Sequence record: PV390659.2
Length of the DNA: 64,000 bases
Reading direction: 5' to 3' (one strand)
From: Escherichia phage vB_EcoM_P8
Shown here: positions 41,383 to 50,779 of the stretch, piece by piece
How the letters are laid out: every line of letters starts with the position of its first letter
How positions within the stretch are numbered: the first letter of the stretch is position 1
The notes under the pieces: generated by a model
What the model was told of the DNA's origin: nothing
The model's database searches: none
Seen by the model: only the letters and a program-made list of their open reading frames with translations
Made by a program: the position numbers and the translations under genes

Positions 41383-41670
41383 ATGAAAACATTTAAAGAA
41401 TTTACTTCTACAACTACCCCGGTTTCTACTATTACTGAAGCTACTCTTACTTCTGAAGTTATTAAAGCAAATAAAGGACGAGAAGGTAAACCAATGATTA
41501 GTTTGGTTGATGGCGAAGAAATCAAAGGTACTGTTTACCTAGGTGATGGGTGGTCTGCTAAAAAGGATGGTGCTACAATCGTTATCTCTCCTGCTGAAGA
41601 AACTGCGTTGTTTAAAGCTAAACACATTTCTGCGGCACATCTCAAGATTATTGCTAAAAATCTTTTGTAA
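41383..41670 (+). CDS. ipI: internal head protein I (IPI)
   Basis: 95 aa; N-terminal capsid-targeting sequence MKTFKEFTSTTTPVSTITEA; recognised T4 IPI. Confidence 0.9.
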   Translation: MKTFKEFTSTTTPVSTITEATLTSEVIKANKGREGKPMISLVDGEEIKGTVYLGDGWSAKKDGATIVISPAEETALFKAKHISAAHLKIIAKNLL

Positions 41671-43214: not shown

Positions 43215-43287
43215 TGGGAATTAGCCAAGTTGGTAAGGCACTGGATTTTGATTCCAGGATGCAAAGGTTCGAGTCCTTTATTCCCAG
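43215..43287 (+). tRNA. tRNA-Gln (anticodon UUG)
   Basis: Cloverleaf read by eye: acceptor TGGGAAT/ATTCCCA, anticodon loop TTTTGAT, T-arm GGTTCGAGTCC. Confidence 0.85.
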
Positions 43288-43288
43288 C

Positions 43289-43375
43289 GCGAGAATGGTC
43301 AAATTGGTAAAGGCACAGCACTTAAAATGCTGCGGAATGATTTCCTTGTGGGTTCGAGTCCCACTTCTCGCACCA
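43289..43375 (+). tRNA. tRNA-Leu (anticodon UAA), class II, CCA encoded
   Basis: Acceptor GCGAGAA/TTCTCGC, anticodon loop CTTAAAA, long variable arm. Confidence 0.85.
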
Positions 43376-43380
43376 AATTT

Positions 43381-43454
<74 letters not shown>

Positions 43455-43464
43455 ATTTAATTTA

Positions 43465-43538
43465 CTCCGTGTAGCTCAGTTTGGTAGAGCGCCTGATTTG
43501 GGATCAGGAGGTCCAAGGTTCAAATCCTTGTATGGAGA
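43465..43538 (+). tRNA. tRNA-Pro (anticodon UGG)
   Basis: Anticodon stem CCTGA/TCAGG, loop TTTGGGA, T-arm GGTTCAAATCC. Confidence 0.8.
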
Positions 43539-43540
43539 CT

Positions 43541-43630
43541 GGAGGCGTGGCAGAGTGGTTTAATGCACCGGTCTTGAAAACCGGCAGTCGCTCCGGCGAC
43601 TCATAGGTTCAAATCCTATCGCCTCCGCCA
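43541..43630 (+). tRNA. tRNA-Ser (anticodon UGA), class II, CCA encoded
   Basis: Acceptor GGAGGCG/CGCCTCC, anticodon loop CTTGAAA, long variable arm. Confidence 0.85.
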
Positions 43631-43635
43631 GTTTT

Positions 43636-43711
43636 GCTGATTTAGCTCAGTAGGTAGAGCAACTCACTTGTAATGAGAAGGTCGGCGGTTCGATTCCGTC
43701 AATCAGCACCA
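43636..43711 (+). tRNA. tRNA-Thr (anticodon UGU), CCA encoded
   Basis: Acceptor GCTGATT/AATCAGC, anticodon loop CTTGTAA. Confidence 0.85.
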
Positions 43712-43712
43712 A

Positions 43713-43787
43713 GGCCCTGTAGCTGGAAGGTTCAAGCAAGCGACTCATAATCGTCAGATGGTGGTTCAATTCCACCCAGGGCCACCA
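43713..43787 (+). tRNA. tRNA with CAU anticodon (Ile2-type, as T4 tRNA-Ile; Met cannot be excluded from sequence alone)
   Basis: Acceptor GGCCCTG/CAGGGCC, anticodon loop CTCATAA, CCA encoded. Confidence 0.8.
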
Positions 43788-43800
43788 AATTAAGAATTAA

Positions 43801-43887
43801 GGGGAGTTATCCCGTAGAGGTAGCGGTGTGGACTGTAAATCCATTGTCATTGCGACTCGGGTGGTTCGACTCCATCACTCCCCACCA
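43801..43887 (+). tRNA. tRNA-Tyr-like (anticodon GUA), class II
   Basis: Perfect 7-bp acceptor GGGGAGT/ACTCCCC, anticodon stem GTGGA/TCCAT with loop CTGTAAA, long variable arm, T-arm GGTGGTTCGACTCCATC, CCA encoded. Confidence 0.65.
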
Positions 43888-43891
43888 ATTT

Positions 43892-43966
43892 GGATGTGTA
43901 GCTCAATGGCAGAGCGATCGCCTGTTAAGCGATTGGTTATAGGTTCGAATCCTATCACGTCCGCCA
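43892..43966 (+). tRNA. tRNA-Asn (anticodon GUU)
   Basis: Acceptor GGATGTG/CACGTCC, D-arm GCTCAATGGCAGAGC, anticodon stem ATCGC/GCGAT loop CTGTTAA, CCA encoded. Confidence 0.75.
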
Positions 43967-43970
43967 AATC

Positions 43971-44046
43971 CGAGGCATAGCTCAGAAGGAAGAGCAAGGA
44001 CCTTCTAAGTCCTAGGTCGTAGGTTCGATCCCTACTGCCTCGACCA
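43971..44046 (+). tRNA. tRNA-Arg (anticodon UCU)
   Basis: Perfect acceptor CGAGGCA/TGCCTCG, anticodon loop CTTCTAA, CCA encoded. Confidence 0.85.
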
Positions 44047-44062: not shown

Positions 44063-44413
44063 ATGAAAGGTAATGTTTATTTAGTAGTTCATGATTTAAC
44101 ATTCTATTTTAATCATAATGACACTGTTATTTCTGAACGTGTAATTAATTTACTTTATCAGCATGCAGATTATGTTTATGTCGAAAACGAATATGGTCAT
44201 TGGCAATTTCTCAAAAATCGTTCATTTGGTTTAGATGGTTACGAATATTTTGAACGTAAAGACCTTTTAGATAAAATTCCGTTATCTACACAATATCAAA
44301 ATCATAAGTCTTTATATAAATGCCGTCCAATTCGAAATGCTGAATCTGCGTATGAAGTAATTGATTTATGGCGTAAACGTCGTGAACAGGTTGATGCTTT
44401 AAAAGAATACTAA
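44063..44413 (+). CDS. hypothetical protein between tRNA cluster and structured RNA region
   Basis: 116 aa ORF, GAGGAAA RBS 7 nt upstream. Confidence 0.6.
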   Translation: MKGNVYLVVHDLTFYFNHNDTVISERVINLLYQHADYVYVENEYGHWQFLKNRSFGLDGYEYFERKDLLDKIPLSTQYQNHKSLYKCRPIRNAESAYEVIDLWRKRREQVDALKEY

Positions 44414-44419
44414 GAAACC

Positions 44420-44720
44420 GGGTCGCTACCGGTAAGTCGTCGGACTGATGTTCCCTGGAGTATAGTTTCTCCCACAGTTTTACTGTGTTCTGATTCTTTA
44501 CTATCACAGCAGAAACGGCGCACCGAATTATCGATTCGAGGAAATATCTTTGCCGTAAGCCGAGTAGCGTTTTTGGCGGAACGTTCGGATATGGTCGAGA
44601 TATGGCCTTTTAAAAATATTGAGTAGCGTCAACTGCTTAATAACCGGGTTCGAATCCCGGCGTTTCGTACAAACACTTGCCTTAGCAGGTGGAACCCCGA
44701 CAAGGTTGCCGCAAGGCTTA
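44420..44720 (+). ncRNA. non-coding structured region, possibly T4 small stable RNA (species 1/2, rnaC/rnaD) homologs
   Basis: About 300 nt with no ORF, tRNA-like T-arm CCGGGTTCGAATCCCGG at 44643-44659, ends at a strong terminator; location after tRNA-Arg matches my recollection of T4. Confidence 0.4.
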
Positions 44721-44747
44721 GCCCCGACCGAAAGGTTGGGGCTTTTT
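44721..44747 (+). terminator. rho-independent terminator (copy 1 of duplicated element)
   Basis: GCCCCGACCGAAAGGTTGGGGC hairpin plus TTTTT. Confidence 0.8.
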
Positions 44748-44749
44748 AG

Positions 44750-44757
44750 TATAAATA
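44750..44757 (+). promoter_or_regulatory. late promoter for internal-protein-like gene
   Basis: TATAAATA 40 bp upstream of ATG 44798. Confidence 0.6.
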
Positions 44758-44797
44758 TAGTAGTATATTAAATCCACGAATTAAAACAGGAAATAAG

Positions 44798-45271
44798 ATG
44801 AAATCATATGCTCAATTTTTAAATGAAGCGGTGTTAAATGAAGCATCTAGCACCGAAATTCAAGCTGTCGCAAAAGCAGCCATTGCAGCGGGTAAATATT
44901 CCTATAAAGATGCTTCTGACGAATCACGATTCCAGTTTGCTCGCGACATGAAAGCAGAAGGATTTACGGGAAATGCAGTTAGTATGGCCTGGAAAAGTTT
45001 AGTTGCTACTGGCGCTGCTTTTGCAAAGGCTTCAGGTAAACCTGCTCCTAAAGCAGATCCTAAAGCTGCACAAGAAAAAAATATCGTTAAAGGAATTATC
45101 GCTAAATATGAAGCTATCCTTAAAGAGCTTTTAGTAATCAAAACCGAAGGCCAAAAGTTAGCCCGCGCTTATAGTTTCAAAGATAATCCACATGCTCACT
45201 CTCTTGAGTATGTTGAAGACATCCAAAAAATTATTAAAGACCGCATTTGGTCTGCTAAACAAATCAAATAA
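44798..45271 (+). CDS. internal-protein-like virion protein candidate (N-terminal capsid-targeting-like sequence)
   Basis: 157 aa; N-terminus MKSYAQFLNEAVLNEA resembles IPI targeting sequence with L-x-E-A cleavage-like sites; own TATAAATA late promoter; flanked by identical terminators. Confidence 0.6.
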   Translation: MKSYAQFLNEAVLNEASSTEIQAVAKAAIAAGKYSYKDASDESRFQFARDMKAEGFTGNAVSMAWKSLVATGAAFAKASGKPAPKADPKAAQEKNIVKGIIAKYEAILKELLVIKTEGQKLARAYSFKDNPHAHSLEYVEDIQKIIKDRIWSAKQIK

Positions 45272-45278
45272 CATTTTA

Positions 45279-45305
45279 GCCCCGACCGAAAGGTTGGGGC
45301 TTTTT
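45279..45305 (+). terminator. rho-independent terminator (copy 2, identical sequence)
   Basis: GCCCCGACCGAAAGGTTGGGGC hairpin plus TTTTT. Confidence 0.8.
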
Positions 45306-45424
45306 GATATCTAGGCCTTTCTGGACCTCTCTAGGCATCATTTAGTTTATACCCTTTATAATATATTATCCTATCCTTTAATTGCCCATCCCTGCCCTAG
45401 AATTCCCTAAAACTTTTTAAAAAT

Positions 45425-45480
45425 TTTTTCACAAAACGGTTTACATCCCCGTTCTTCCATGGTACTATACAACTATCAAC
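45425..45480 (+). promoter_or_regulatory. T4 early promoter
   Basis: GTTTAC 45439-45444, TACTAT 45463-45468. Confidence 0.6.
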
Positions 45481-45512
45481 TACTGATACAGAAAAACAAC
45501 TTGGAGAATGAA

Positions 45513-45776
45513 ATGGATAATTACGGCGAACTGTTCAACTTCTTTATGAAATGCGTTTCAGAAGATTTCGGTCGTACAGTGAATGATATTAAAGTTATCG
45601 GTCCTGATCATCCGATGTTTGAAACTTACGCAGTAATGGGTAATGAAGATGGTCAGTGGTATACTGTAAAGGTTGTGATTAACATGTTCACTGCTGAAGG
45701 TTATGTTAAACTGTCTTCTAAAGTTTACCATGATAACGACGAAATCGCAGAAGAATATTTTAATAATATGAAATAA
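45513..45776 (+). CDS. hypothetical protein
   Basis: 87 aa from ATG 45513 with GGAGAA RBS; ORF track start 45459 lies inside the promoter. Confidence 0.55.
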   Translation: MDNYGELFNFFMKCVSEDFGRTVNDIKVIGPDHPMFETYAVMGNEDGQWYTVKVVINMFTAEGYVKLSSKVYHDNDEIAEEYFNNMK

Positions 45777-45831: not shown

Positions 45832-46362
45832 ATGTCTCTTTATACCGAACTGAATGAAACTTCCGAAAAATCTTTTGATGGTATCTTATCAATAATGCAA
45901 AAGCAGGTATTAGAACAGCTTAGTGAAGCCGCAAGCAACGGACATAAGGCTTGTCGAATCCCAAGCCCACATCGTCGCCTGTATGAACGCCCTCTTATTA
46001 ATTGGCTAGAAAGCGAAGGTCTTACAGTTAAGATTTGTCCTGCCAAATTTGATGTCCCACGTATTCTTAATATTTACTGGGATAAACCGATTGAGAAACC
46101 GATTGAGAAAAGTGAACCTTGGGTTGTCAATGTAAAAACATATGATAATGGATGCTCACTTGAGGTGTCTGCTGTAATTAAAGGCACTCACGGTGAAAAA
46201 TCGTGGGGTTGGCCTGGTAAAGATAAAGAAATCGTGTTAAGTGTAAAAGCTACTAGTATTAGTACTCCTATAGCTAAAAGCATTATCGCCGCCGCTGTTG
46301 AAGAAGCTGAACGAATTTGTAAAATTAAAAATAGTTTACATCTCTTAAATAGCATGATATAA
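45832..46362 (+). CDS. hypothetical protein
   Basis: 176 aa ORF behind early promoter; contains a 12-bp tandem duplication (PIEKPIEK). Confidence 0.6.
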   Translation: MSLYTELNETSEKSFDGILSIMQKQVLEQLSEAASNGHKACRIPSPHRRLYERPLINWLESEGLTVKICPAKFDVPRILNIYWDKPIEKPIEKSEPWVVNVKTYDNGCSLEVSAVIKGTHGEKSWGWPGKDKEIVLSVKATSISTPIAKSIIAAAVEEAERICKIKNSLHLLNSMI

Positions 46363-48010: not shown

Positions 48011-48366
48011 ATAAAGTCAAATATTCTTTTTCTGAGTCATTTTTAATTTTTGCTGTAGCGTTGGCTGCAGCTCTTGCTGGTAGTCTTATTGGATTAATGA
48101 TTGACTGTATTATTTTAAACATCCGCAGTAACGTCAGCGGTATAGTAGATATAATAGAAGTTTGGAGTGAACTTCATTATACTATAGCGATTTCATTATT
48201 TTCATTCTTTGGTATTATTTTATATTTTCATTATGATAATTTTAAAATAAATTGGCAAAGAAAAAAGGATTACAAAATACAATTAAAAGAATATAATAAC
48301 TACATGTCTTATATTGAAAATGAATCAATGAAAGAATTCGTGAATGATTGTAGGAAAATCAAATGA
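47992..48366 (+). CDS. small membrane protein, paralog family member (C-terminal FVNDCRKIK)
   Basis: 124 aa, two predicted TM helices. Confidence 0.55.
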   Translation: MQKPKLNKVKYSFSESFLIFAVALAAALAGSLIGLMIDCIILNIRSNVSGIVDIIEVWSELHYTIAISLFSFFGIILYFHYDNFKINWQRKKDYKIQLKEYNNYMSYIENESMKEFVNDCRKIK

Positions 48367-48851
48367 TTTTAAAAACTCGCTGGTATGATTTAGATGATGG
48401 GGACGATGGCATTCCAGTTGATAGAGTTGACTGGAATGGCTGTTCCGAAGATATGAAAAATTTGTTAATTAGGGAGTTTAGAATGGGATATCAACCAGTT
48501 AAGCCATCTACTGCAACAGATGATAAATTCGTGTGTATTCAAAATGGTCGTGCTAAGTTAACGAACGCTGATTGGTTCACAGATAAGAAGGTTATTCTGT
48601 GGTATATTATTAGTTTTCCTGTGACATCATTTGTATTTTGCTTCTTTGGAGAAAGTCCAATAGGCAGAACGGAAGATTGGATTCTTTTAATTATACTTGT
48701 TAATATTTTTACAGCAGCAGTACTATCAGGAATATGGTGCGTGTTCATTGAAATGCCATGGCGGTTACGTAGGCAGCAAAAGATTTTTGATGAAAAGAAA
48801 TATACTCAAAATTTAAATAATTTTATCACTGAATGCAGGAAATTAAAATGA
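48363..48851 (+). CDS. small membrane protein, paralog family member (C-terminal FITECRKLK)
   Basis: 162 aa, two predicted TM helices. Confidence 0.55.
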   Translation: MILKTRWYDLDDGDDGIPVDRVDWNGCSEDMKNLLIREFRMGYQPVKPSTATDDKFVCIQNGRAKLTNADWFTDKKVILWYIISFPVTSFVFCFFGESPIGRTEDWILLIILVNIFTAAVLSGIWCVFIEMPWRLRRQQKIFDEKKYTQNLNNFITECRKLK

Positions 48852-49288: not shown

Positions 49289-49819
<531 letters not shown>

Positions 49820-49878: not shown

Positions 49879-50295
49879 ATGACTCGTATTAATTTGACTT
49901 TAGTATCTGAACTTGCTGATCAACATTTAATCGCAGAATACCGTGAATTGCCACGCGTTTTTGGTATAGTTCGTAAACACGTGGCAAATGGTAAGCGGGT
50001 TAAAGATTTTAAAATATCTTCCGAGTTTATTTTAGGTTCTGGTCATGTTACGTTCTTTTACGACAAGTTAGAATTTTTGCGAAAGCGTCAATCAGACATT
50101 ATAATGGAATGCTTAAAACGTGGGTTTAGTATAAAAGATACTGAAGTTCCTGACATCAGCGATATTCCAGCAGAATGGAAAAATGATTATAATCCATGCA
50201 AATCAGCTATTAAATTGAGTCAACAACGACTCGATGAAAAAATTTTAATGAAGCCACACTGGTACAAGTATTACGGCAAAAATATTTACATTTAA
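49879..50295 (+). CDS. denV: endonuclease V, pyrimidine dimer DNA glycosylase
   Basis: 138 aa; recognised T4 endo V ([17 protein letters not shown]...). Confidence 0.95.
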
Positions 50296-50304
50296 AGGAA
50301 ACAT

Positions 50305-50779
50305 ATGAAAACATATCAAGAATTTATCACTGAAGCAGCTATTAATTCTCAAATTATTGCTGAATCTTTTACTGATCTTTTGAAATTTAAAAAAAGGTCA
50401 AAAAATCACTGCTGTATTGGATGATGGTACAGAAGTTGAGATGGATGTACAGGGATATAATTATGCAGTAGATGGAAAACTGTATAATAAATCCCATGCT
50501 AAATTTGATTCATTTGACGACTTTGTTAATACAGTTGAAGATGAAAAAACTCGTAGATCAATTTCAACTGGTGATGCTAAGGTTCTTATGGCACACGGTC
50601 ATGAACGTATTCGTGCTAAACAGAATAAAATGGGTGAAGATAATTTCGCATTAGTTGGTTATCAATCTGGTAAGCAAACTTATGGCTATCAGCGTACTGC
50701 TACCATGTATAATAAGAATGGTAAAATCGCTTTCGTGAATAGTAAAGGTTCTATTCAGTACGTCAAATCATTCAAATAA
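50305..50779 (+). pseudogene. internal-protein-like gene interrupted by a +1 frameshift in an A7 homopolymer (or sequencing error)
   Basis: ATG 50305 encodes MKTYQEFITEAAINSQ... and stops at 50422-50424; the reading continues in the +1 frame from the A7 run (50389-50395) to 50779; with six A the ORF is continuous, about 157 aa. Confidence 0.6.

Follow-up and report, generated by a model that had tools for sequence, protein, structure and literature searches.

Between the stable-RNA gene rnaC and gene e.8, the 64-kb stretch of Escherichia phage vB_EcoM_P8 analysed here (64,000 nucleotides of sequence record PV390659.2, referred to below as the window) carries a single gene for a 157-aa protein, enclosed by two copies of a terminator hairpin. 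The window is part of a T4-like (Tequatrovirus) genome, and Escherichia phage vB_EcoM_BMB16 matches the queried stretch at 100% identity. A preliminary description drawn from the letters of the sequence had proposed that a 27-nt element flanks one 157-aa open reading frame (ORF) in direct orientation, that this ORF has its own late-promoter motif, TATAAATA, and that its product may be an injected protein directed against host defences. The architecture stands as described: the element has exactly two copies on the + strand (44721-44747 and 45279-45305), these bracket the 157-aa ORF, and both the ORF and the promoter motif are present where they had been placed (Table 1). The data presented below support the view that the 157-aa protein is a further capsid-targeted internal protein, encoded at a locus undescribed in the literature found and left unannotated in the databases.

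The cassette and its predicted product

The identity of the two repeat copies extends over 30 nt (TTAGCCCCGACCGAAAGGTTGGGGCTTTTT), or over 35 nt at 94%. Each copy comprises a 10-bp stem with 7 G-C pairs, a GAAA loop and then T5, with a folding energy of -20.3 kcal/mol and a z-score of -4.5 to -5.7 versus shuffled sequences. The repeat is a textbook intrinsic terminator. No third copy of the 27-nt element was found in the window even at 3 mismatches, the number expected being 0 (100 shuffles). Since the rnaC homologue and the tRNA cluster end directly upstream, copy 1 is taken as the terminator of the tRNA/stable-RNA unit. In Rfam, the E-value scan found tRNAs only; a match to 'Betaproteobacteria toxic sRNA' at 45249-45308 (20.7 bits against a gathering score of 50, E 0.68) was rejected as merely the terminator hairpin. 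The motif TATAAATA occurs 23 times in the window versus 10.6 expected, and it stands at the same position upstream of the ORF with the capsid-targeting leader (see below) in related loci L005, L010, L011, L012 (phage JS98) and L013. The minus-strand ORFs within the cassette (79 and 38 aa) are without support.

The leader of the 157-aa protein, MKSYAQFLNE↓A (the arrow marks the cleavage site), aligns position by position with MKTYQEFIAE↓A of the T4 internal proteins IPII and IPIII. The likeness to a capsid-targeting sequence that had been suggested earlier is real, although IPII and IPIII turned out to be far better comparators than the IPI leader quoted at that time (MKTFKEFTSTTTPVSTITE↓A in T4). 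For IPIII, the N-terminal 10 residues are enough for entry into the head; positions 4 and 7 are the chief determinants of targeting, positions 8 and 10 determine processing, and the prohead protease gp21 cleaves behind the Glu of the motif L/I-x-E (PMC9026906, a review of L. Black's work). The 157-aa protein has Tyr4 and Phe7 at the targeting positions and Leu8 and Glu10 at the processing positions, followed by Ala. Two L-N-E motifs of the gp21 type are present, L8-N9-E10↓A11 and L13-N14-E15↓A16 (a sequence motif only), and cleavage is predicted after codon 10 (44827) and/or codon 15 (44842). The gp21-type site is conserved in homologues of three genera. At the DNA level LNEA is encoded twice in the leader, by TTAAATGAAGC at 44819-44829 and again at 44834-44844. 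A two-site leader of the form E[SA][IV]LNE[AE] also heads unrelated 90-, 93- and 205-aa proteins in other phages, and some orthologues of the 157-aa protein carry a short one-site leader.

Among the window ORFs of at least 40 aa, only ipI and the 157-aa ORF start with MK.[YF]..F; the one other start of this kind, at 50305, is that of a frameshifted ip4. Of the 718 ORFs in the related loci (255 kb), the leader pattern is found in 31 distinct proteins, including IPII, IPIII, Ip4, Ip7 and unnamed families, and grouping by length and leader only gives about a dozen leader-bearing families. Outside the leader, the body of the 157-aa protein matches none of the other leader-bearing families, save for a partial C-terminal profile match to a 205-aa protein of the JS98 type.

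The 157-aa ORF is a real gene under purifying selection, the pairwise ratio of nonsynonymous to synonymous divergence (dN/dS) being 0.05-0.2 among eight orthologues. Divergence by region was obtained for the window gene and its orthologues in related loci L004, L005, L008, L009 and L011. The C-terminal half (residues 81-157) has a dN of 0.02-0.045 and a dN/dS of 0.02-0.06 at a dS of ~1, which is near saturation. Three allelic types are found for the N-terminal domain (residues 17-80), whose dN of 0.2-0.35 is 5-10 times that of the C-terminal half and whose dN/dS is 0.15-0.3. As a matter of speculation, a variable N-terminal domain on a near-invariant C-terminal half would fit a specificity module carried on a conserved scaffold. 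In the AlphaFold model, built with a 10-sequence alignment (mean predicted local distance difference test score 71.7), the leader and a KPAPKADPK linker are disordered; the linker joins an N-terminal domain of three helices, predicted with confidence, to a C-terminal helical hairpin. The predicted mature product has 141-147 aa, a mass of ~15.4-16 kDa and an isoelectric point (pI) of ~9.5, which resembles the values for mature IPII (9.6) and IPIII (9.7).

By tblastn, 511 phage records contain the 157-aa protein, and in 469 of these the coverage is at least 80%. Identity is mostly 95-100% in Escherichia, Shigella and Yersinia phages, with groups at 71-74%, and Klebsiella phages reach ~59% over the N-terminal domain. 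In all of the ~100 matches listed the annotation is 'hypothetical protein' or an equivalent; the databases offer only this label because T4, T2 and T6 lack the site. In PHROGs the protein belongs to phrog_2280 ('unknown function'), and Ip1, Ip2, Ip3 and Ip4 are members of four other PHROGs, all 'internal virion protein'. Pfam gave sub-threshold noise only, with no match to IPI_T4, and none of the defence-system models in PADLOC matches the protein. Apart from the family of the protein itself, Foldseek against BFVD gave only a weak match (E 7e-3), to a Serratia phage protein that is likewise uncharacterised; the best Foldseek match in the PDB, to ferritins (E 0.67), is meaningless. An exhaustive phmmer search of 1.84 billion representatives returned 11 matches, of which the three non-phage ones (753-2315 aa) were discarded as spurious, one 31%-identical match of 54 residues being counted five times in a repeat protein.

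Table 1. Features of the rnaC-e.8 interval and its flanks, in window coordinates
Feature	Position	Strand	Remarks
rnaC homologue (T4 stable RNA, species 1 RNA)	44531-44669	+	136 of 139 bases as in T4 rnaC; last gene of the tRNA/stable-RNA cluster
Terminator copy 1	44718-44747 (hairpin 44720-44743, then T-run)	+	Left cassette boundary; ends the tRNA/rnaC unit
Late promoter motif (T4-type) TATAAATA	44750-44757	+	2 nt past the terminator T-run, 40 nt ahead of ATG
Shine-Dalgarno AGGAAA	44788-44793	+	4 nt ahead of ATG; kept in orthologous cassettes
Leader (capsid-targeting sequence) MKSYAQFLNE↓AVLNE↓A	44798-44845	+	Alignment with T4 IPII/IPIII
Coding sequence (CDS) of the 157-aa protein	44798-45271 (including stop codon)	+	dN/dS, PHROG 2280, 511 phage records
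Terminator copy 2	45276-45305	+	Right cassette boundary; predicted end of the late transcript
Right flank	45440-45776	+	Early-type promoter TTTACA-17-TACTAT (45440-45468), then e.8 (45513-45776)

Occupied and empty forms of the site

The gene shows presence/absence polymorphism, being found in the phage records counted above and missing from T4, T2, T6 and Yersinia phage PST. Alignment to T4, the check that the preliminary description had proposed, bears out that the 157-aa ORF is not at this position there. The T4 rnaC-e.8 spacer is 284 nt long and gene-free; its first part matches 44670-44747 of the window, and its positions 49-284 align to 45276-45512, a stretch that begins with terminator copy 2. 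In window coordinates, the T4 interval corresponds to 44670-44747 joined to 45306-45512. T4 therefore has the left flank, one terminator and the adjoining right flank, and is short by exactly 558 bp. T2, T6 and PST have the same single-copy junction, in which GGTTGGGGCTTTTT is followed directly by GGTATCTAGGCC.

The comparison set for the occupied site consisted of ten IMG/VR loci around e.8 homologues and several GenBank records. Within Tequatrovirus, the position upstream of e.8 is held by a 153-157-aa gene alone in the window phage, in Yersinia phage fD1, in the HY01-type and in L005 and L006. A two-cassette form, with the 153-157-aa gene followed by a 187-aa gene, is found in Shigella phage pSs-1, L007, L008 and L014. 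In pSs-1 (L003, 2118-3403), the 187-aa protein of the second cassette has the leader MKTYAEFLTE↓A, and the terminator that closes this cassette, the third at the site, differs in its stem (CCCTATC...GATAGGG). The 187-aa protein occurs in 165 phage records and is 'hypothetical' throughout the matches listed. In Dhakavirus, the site upstream of e.8 holds either a 154-aa form (IME341) or a 205-aa protein with the leader MKTYNEFLNESVLNE↓A. The latter is represented by orf135 of phage JS98 (205 aa, annotated as hypothetical; 3260-3877 of L012), which lies at the same site behind the same module of terminator, TATAAATA and Shine-Dalgarno sequence. By hhalign (probability 89%), the C-terminal region of the JS98 protein matches the members of the 157-aa family from Klebsiella and Yersinia phages. 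In Jiaodavirus, Klebsiella phage KpV477 (L018, 2841-3231) has a homologue after the tRNA cluster, split over two small CDSs. Truncated or split forms of the 157-aa family gene, seen in KpV477 and in vB_EcoM-G28 (L002, 3195-3488), look like the result of frameshifts that are either genuine or sequencing errors.

Although the body of the protein differs, these genera have the 5' module in common, in which a terminator hairpin with a GAAA loop and its T-run are followed by TATAAATA (or a close variant of it), by AGGAAA and by the leader. Outside Tequatrovirus, the 3' terminators differ. PHROG 2280 groups the 157-, 187- and 205-aa proteins together. In direct hhalign comparisons, the 157-aa family shares only a C-terminal link with the 205-aa protein and only the leader with the 187-aa protein; therefore, the two cassettes of pSs-1 are not claimed to be paralogues. 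Judged from these sequence comparisons, the presence of a leader-bearing late gene upstream of e.8 appears to be an old occupation of the site.

These data change the reading of the event that separates the window phage from T4. An insertion into this phage, with duplication of the terminator by recombination, had been suggested in the preliminary description. The duplication of an identical terminator is real, and it is restricted to Tequatrovirus, but the direction of the event is probably the reverse. The occupied state is probably ancestral, and the empty site in T4, T2, T6 and PST a deletion between direct repeats, because leader-bearing genes occupy the site in Dhakavirus, a homologue is present in Jiaodavirus and empty sites are in the minority. 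In a spread sample of relatives queried with the T4 junction, 3 of the 13 full-coverage matches listed were empty and 10 contained one cassette; this is a rough estimate, since the query joined both flanks across single cassettes. Recombination between the two 30-nt direct repeats would remove exactly 558 bp, and T4, T2, T6 and PST would represent the product.

The neighbourhood of the site varies as well. The tRNA cluster upstream of the rnaC homologue has ten genes, including Met(CAT), Tyr and Asn, versus eight in T4 (window 43215-44046). A 116-aa ORF lies at 44063-44413, between tRNA-Arg and an rnaD-like region; its T2 counterpart is annotated as similar to RB69ORF150c. The homing endonuclease gene segB is absent from the tRNA-cluster region of the window. 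On the other side, the seven ORFs between the cassette and nudE had been said to match the e.2-e.8 block of T4 in number. The 176-aa ORF at the position of e.7 (45832-46362) compares with 111 aa in T4, and the 162-aa ORF at the position of e.2 (48363-48851) with 102 aa; the ORFs therefore equal those of T4 in number, not wholly in content.

Packaging, proposed function and alternatives

Yersinia phage fD1 (HE956711) has the same cassette, and its product g140 is 98% identical to the window protein, with 3 substitutions in 157 residues. In an analysis of purified fD1 virions by liquid chromatography with tandem mass spectrometry, g140 was listed as particle-associated. The same holds for g129 (Ip4) and g146 (a protein of the ipI locus), both of which bear a leader and were labelled 'head protein' by the authors. 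The product of the neighbouring gene, g139 (e.8), was not marked as particle-associated, and the authors made no comment on g140. The detection of g140 is supportive of packaging, but not decisive. Usable further virion proteomes for JS98, Sf22 and RB69 were not found in the literature.

Taken together, the interval is probably an autonomous late transcription unit encoding an internal head protein of the T4 type that is injected and, most likely, neutralises a host defence. Transcription would start late from the TATAAATA motif. The 10-residue leader, by way of Tyr4 and Phe7, would bring the precursor into the scaffolding core of the prohead, where gp21 may remove 10 or 15 residues, depending on which of the two sites is cut. 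A basic helical product of ~15.5 kDa would then stay with the packaged DNA and be injected with it into the next host. Its most likely role there would be to neutralise a defence that acts early, and the analogy with Ip1-3 points first to a type IV restriction enzyme of the GmrSD family. T4 Ip1, Ip2 and Ip3 are injected inhibitors, each of one distinct GmrSD type IV restriction enzyme and of no other (PMC12373910), and leaderless IPIII expressed in the host rescues a phage that lacks ipIII. Because Ip1, Ip2 and Ip3 are all injected GmrSD inhibitors, the label 'candidate injected anti-defence protein' given in the preliminary description seems fair. With respect to the role after injection, an anti-defence activity is the best-supported guess that this analogy allows. 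The three inhibitors are not homologous to one another (Silas et al. 2025).

Several points weigh against this interpretation. The fD1 proteome called 113-137 of the 277 gene products particle-associated, including DenV, lysozyme and NudE; because of this lack of specificity, the detection of g140 is weak proof of true packaging. Outside its leader, the protein has no detectable similarity in sequence or fold to Ip1-4 or to a protein of known function, as searched in Pfam, the PDB and PHROG and with BLAST and hhalign. Silas et al. (2025) found Ip4-10 to be inactive against 15 GmrSD groups, and an internal protein therefore need not target GmrSD. Finally, the ip genes at the classical loci of T4 are preceded by early-type promoters that lie within inverted repeats, and not by a terminator with TATAAATA; the regulatory design of the cassette therefore differs from theirs.

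It is rather unlikely, in our opinion, that the protein is packaged but serves mainly as a structural or charge-balancing companion of the DNA in the head, filling the internal-protein complement of phages without IPII and IPIII. Such a role would suit a mature protein that is basic (pI 9.5) and rich in Lys and Ala, with a KPAPKADPKAAQEK linker, in a phage which has neither ipII nor ipIII and whose ip4 is frameshifted. A head contains ~1000 internal-protein molecules, whose lysines are in contact with the phosphates of the DNA (PMC3012670). A structural role would also agree with the extreme conservation of the C-terminal half, which is unlike the fast-evolving surface of an arms race. However, T4, T2, T6 and PST manage without the 157-aa protein, all three T4 internal proteins with an assigned function are specific inhibitors, and the three divergent N-domain alleles, given their elevated dN, fit a specificity module. 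One role does not preclude the other. A further alternative, which we regard as very unlikely, is that the cassette is an ordinary late accessory gene (a moron) whose product is not packaged; the likeness of the leader would then reflect a shared module for translation initiation or recombination, and the virion detection would be contamination. The conservation of Tyr4, Phe7, Leu or Ile8 and Glu10, followed by Ala or Ser, across families in which synonymous and neighbouring positions vary is hard to reconcile with this view. Moreover, ten leader residues suffice to package foreign proteins in T4 (PMC9026906), and a leader-bearing protein would therefore be packaged whatever its origin. What this explanation can call upon is the unspecific fD1 proteome and the DNA of the leader itself, which from the Shine-Dalgarno sequence to codon 11 is 76% identical between the two cassettes of pSs-1 and could persist as recombination homology.

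The repeats invite a different doubt. The two terminator copies could be separate regulatory elements whose likeness is maintained by selection for function; they would then be no duplication and no substrate of recombination, and the absence of the ORF from T4 would be unrelated to them. Separate tasks are plausible, as one copy would end the tRNA/rnaC unit and the other the late mRNA, and in other genera the 3' terminator is unlike the 5' one. Yet the copies agree at 30 of 30 positions, including bases outside the stem (TTA before it and T5 after it), and in T4, T2, T6 and PST the break lies precisely within the repeat, of which one copy is left. In L005, L008 and pSs-1 there are 1-4 mismatches between the copies, which is what one would expect of diverging duplicates. 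An independent origin of the two copies is accordingly hardly credible.

Relation to known systems and significance

Like IPII and IPIII (Ip2 and Ip3) and T2 Ip4, the 157-aa protein has the 10-residue leader with L/I-x-E followed by Ala, the gp21 site, at the same positions, and it is small, basic and dispensable, with a presence that varies between close relatives; T2 Ip4 is also 157 aa long. Unlike them, it belongs to PHROG 2280 instead of 7857, 5341 or 3155, matches them in BLAST and hhalign over the leader only, lies between rnaC and e.8 instead of at e-denV or 57B-trna.4, and has a strong terminator and TATAAATA upstream in place of an early-type promoter with a stem-loop. T4 IPI (Ip1; Pfam IPI_T4), which inhibits the GmrSD of E. 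coli CT596, is likewise leader-bearing and provides the functional paradigm of an injected anti-restriction protein. The ipI gene is present in the same window (41383-41670), and its product is 100% identical to T4 IPI. In contrast to the 157-aa protein, which is predicted to be all-helical, IPI has a leader of 19 residues (cleavage ITE↓A) and an alpha/beta fold.

The closest parallel for the cassette as a mobile unit is offered by the PeSL cassettes of RB49 and phi1 (Arbiol, Comeau and Krisch 2010, 2014) and by the PeSL-like elements at the classical IP loci. In these, too, a non-essential ORF lies between repeated stem-loop elements, close relatives hold a single element at the empty site, gain and loss are explained by recombination between the elements, and each unit is transcriptionally insulated. 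The present repeat, however, is a strong G+C-rich intrinsic terminator and not a composite of early promoter and stem-loop. The promoter is of the late TATAAATA type and not of the sigma-70-like or T4 early type, and only the terminator is duplicated, the promoter being on the 5' side alone. The cassette fails the defining feature of a PeSL, yet it behaves like one. With phage morons it shares its own promoter and terminator, a position between two conserved genes and dispensability. Morons have been described in temperate phages, where they are expressed from the prophage. Their flanks are not thought to mediate mobility (Arbiol et al.). The cassette differs from them in being a late-lytic unit with flanking homology and a product predicted to be virion cargo.

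The 157-aa gene lies outside the two described internal-protein loci, 57B-trna.4 and the site next to e, sitting instead between rnaC and e.8. All of the named proteins Ip4-Ip7 (from T2, T6 and PST annotations) are within the two classical loci, and none of them is the 157-aa protein. Ip4-10 were reportedly defined by Repoila et al. in 1994, and more than 30 variants are said to have been mentioned by Comeau et al. in 2007. Arbiol et al. (2010) wrote of 'two highly variable IP loci' and Silas et al. (2025) of 'the two Ip loci'; the literature found names only these two and none at rnaC-e.8, although an earlier mention elsewhere is possible. The rnaC-e.8 interval is probably a third internal-protein locus, for predicted capsid-targeted products.

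At the classical loci, the window phage has an altered repertoire. Gene e (49325-49819) is directly followed by denV (49879-50295), and ipIII and ipII, which lie between them in T4, are absent; elsewhere in the window, tblastn with these two proteins matched only their leaders. Their absence means that the internal-protein set consists of IPI, the 157-aa protein and a possibly defective Ip4. The homologue of T2 Ip4 at 50305-50779 (starting with MKTYQEFITEAAINSQ; 86-94% identical) is broken by a +1 frameshift in a run of A7 at 50389-50395, where T2 has A6, so that the gene is split into an N-terminal fragment of 39 aa and a C-terminal ORF of 120 aa (50417-50779). This could be a homopolymer sequencing error, a pseudogene or a case of slippage.

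A more far-reaching proposal, which we advance tentatively and which has a somewhat greater chance of being wrong than right, is that rnaC-e.8 is a third, undescribed internal-protein hotspot of Tevenvirinae. Its injected products would inhibit defences that have no known phage inhibitor, such as the GmrSD groups insensitive to Ip1-10, and the variable N-terminal domain would set the specificity. The hotspot would contain one or two terminator-bounded cassettes, with the 153-157-aa family and its three N-domain alleles, the 205-aa relative in Dhakavirus and the 187-aa protein of the second cassette. That T2, T4, T6 and PST all have the deleted form would explain why the hotspot has gone unnoticed. 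Silas et al. (2025) reported that five further GmrSD groups are active against T-even phages and are not inhibited by any of Ip1-10.

Nothing in these findings overturns existing knowledge. The model phages T2, T4 and T6 are best read as deletion variants at the rnaC-e.8 site, and the cassette is a natural example of the exchange of a terminator-bounded module with a late promoter. The 157-, 187- and 205-aa proteins are unannotated and lie outside the two loci that are usually screened; the first two occur in hundreds of phage records. Several active GmrSD groups are still without a known inhibitor, and internal-protein repertoires help to set the host range of therapeutic T4-like phages. In general, recognising the three proteins as leader-bearing virion cargo yields a short list of candidate injected anti-defence proteins.

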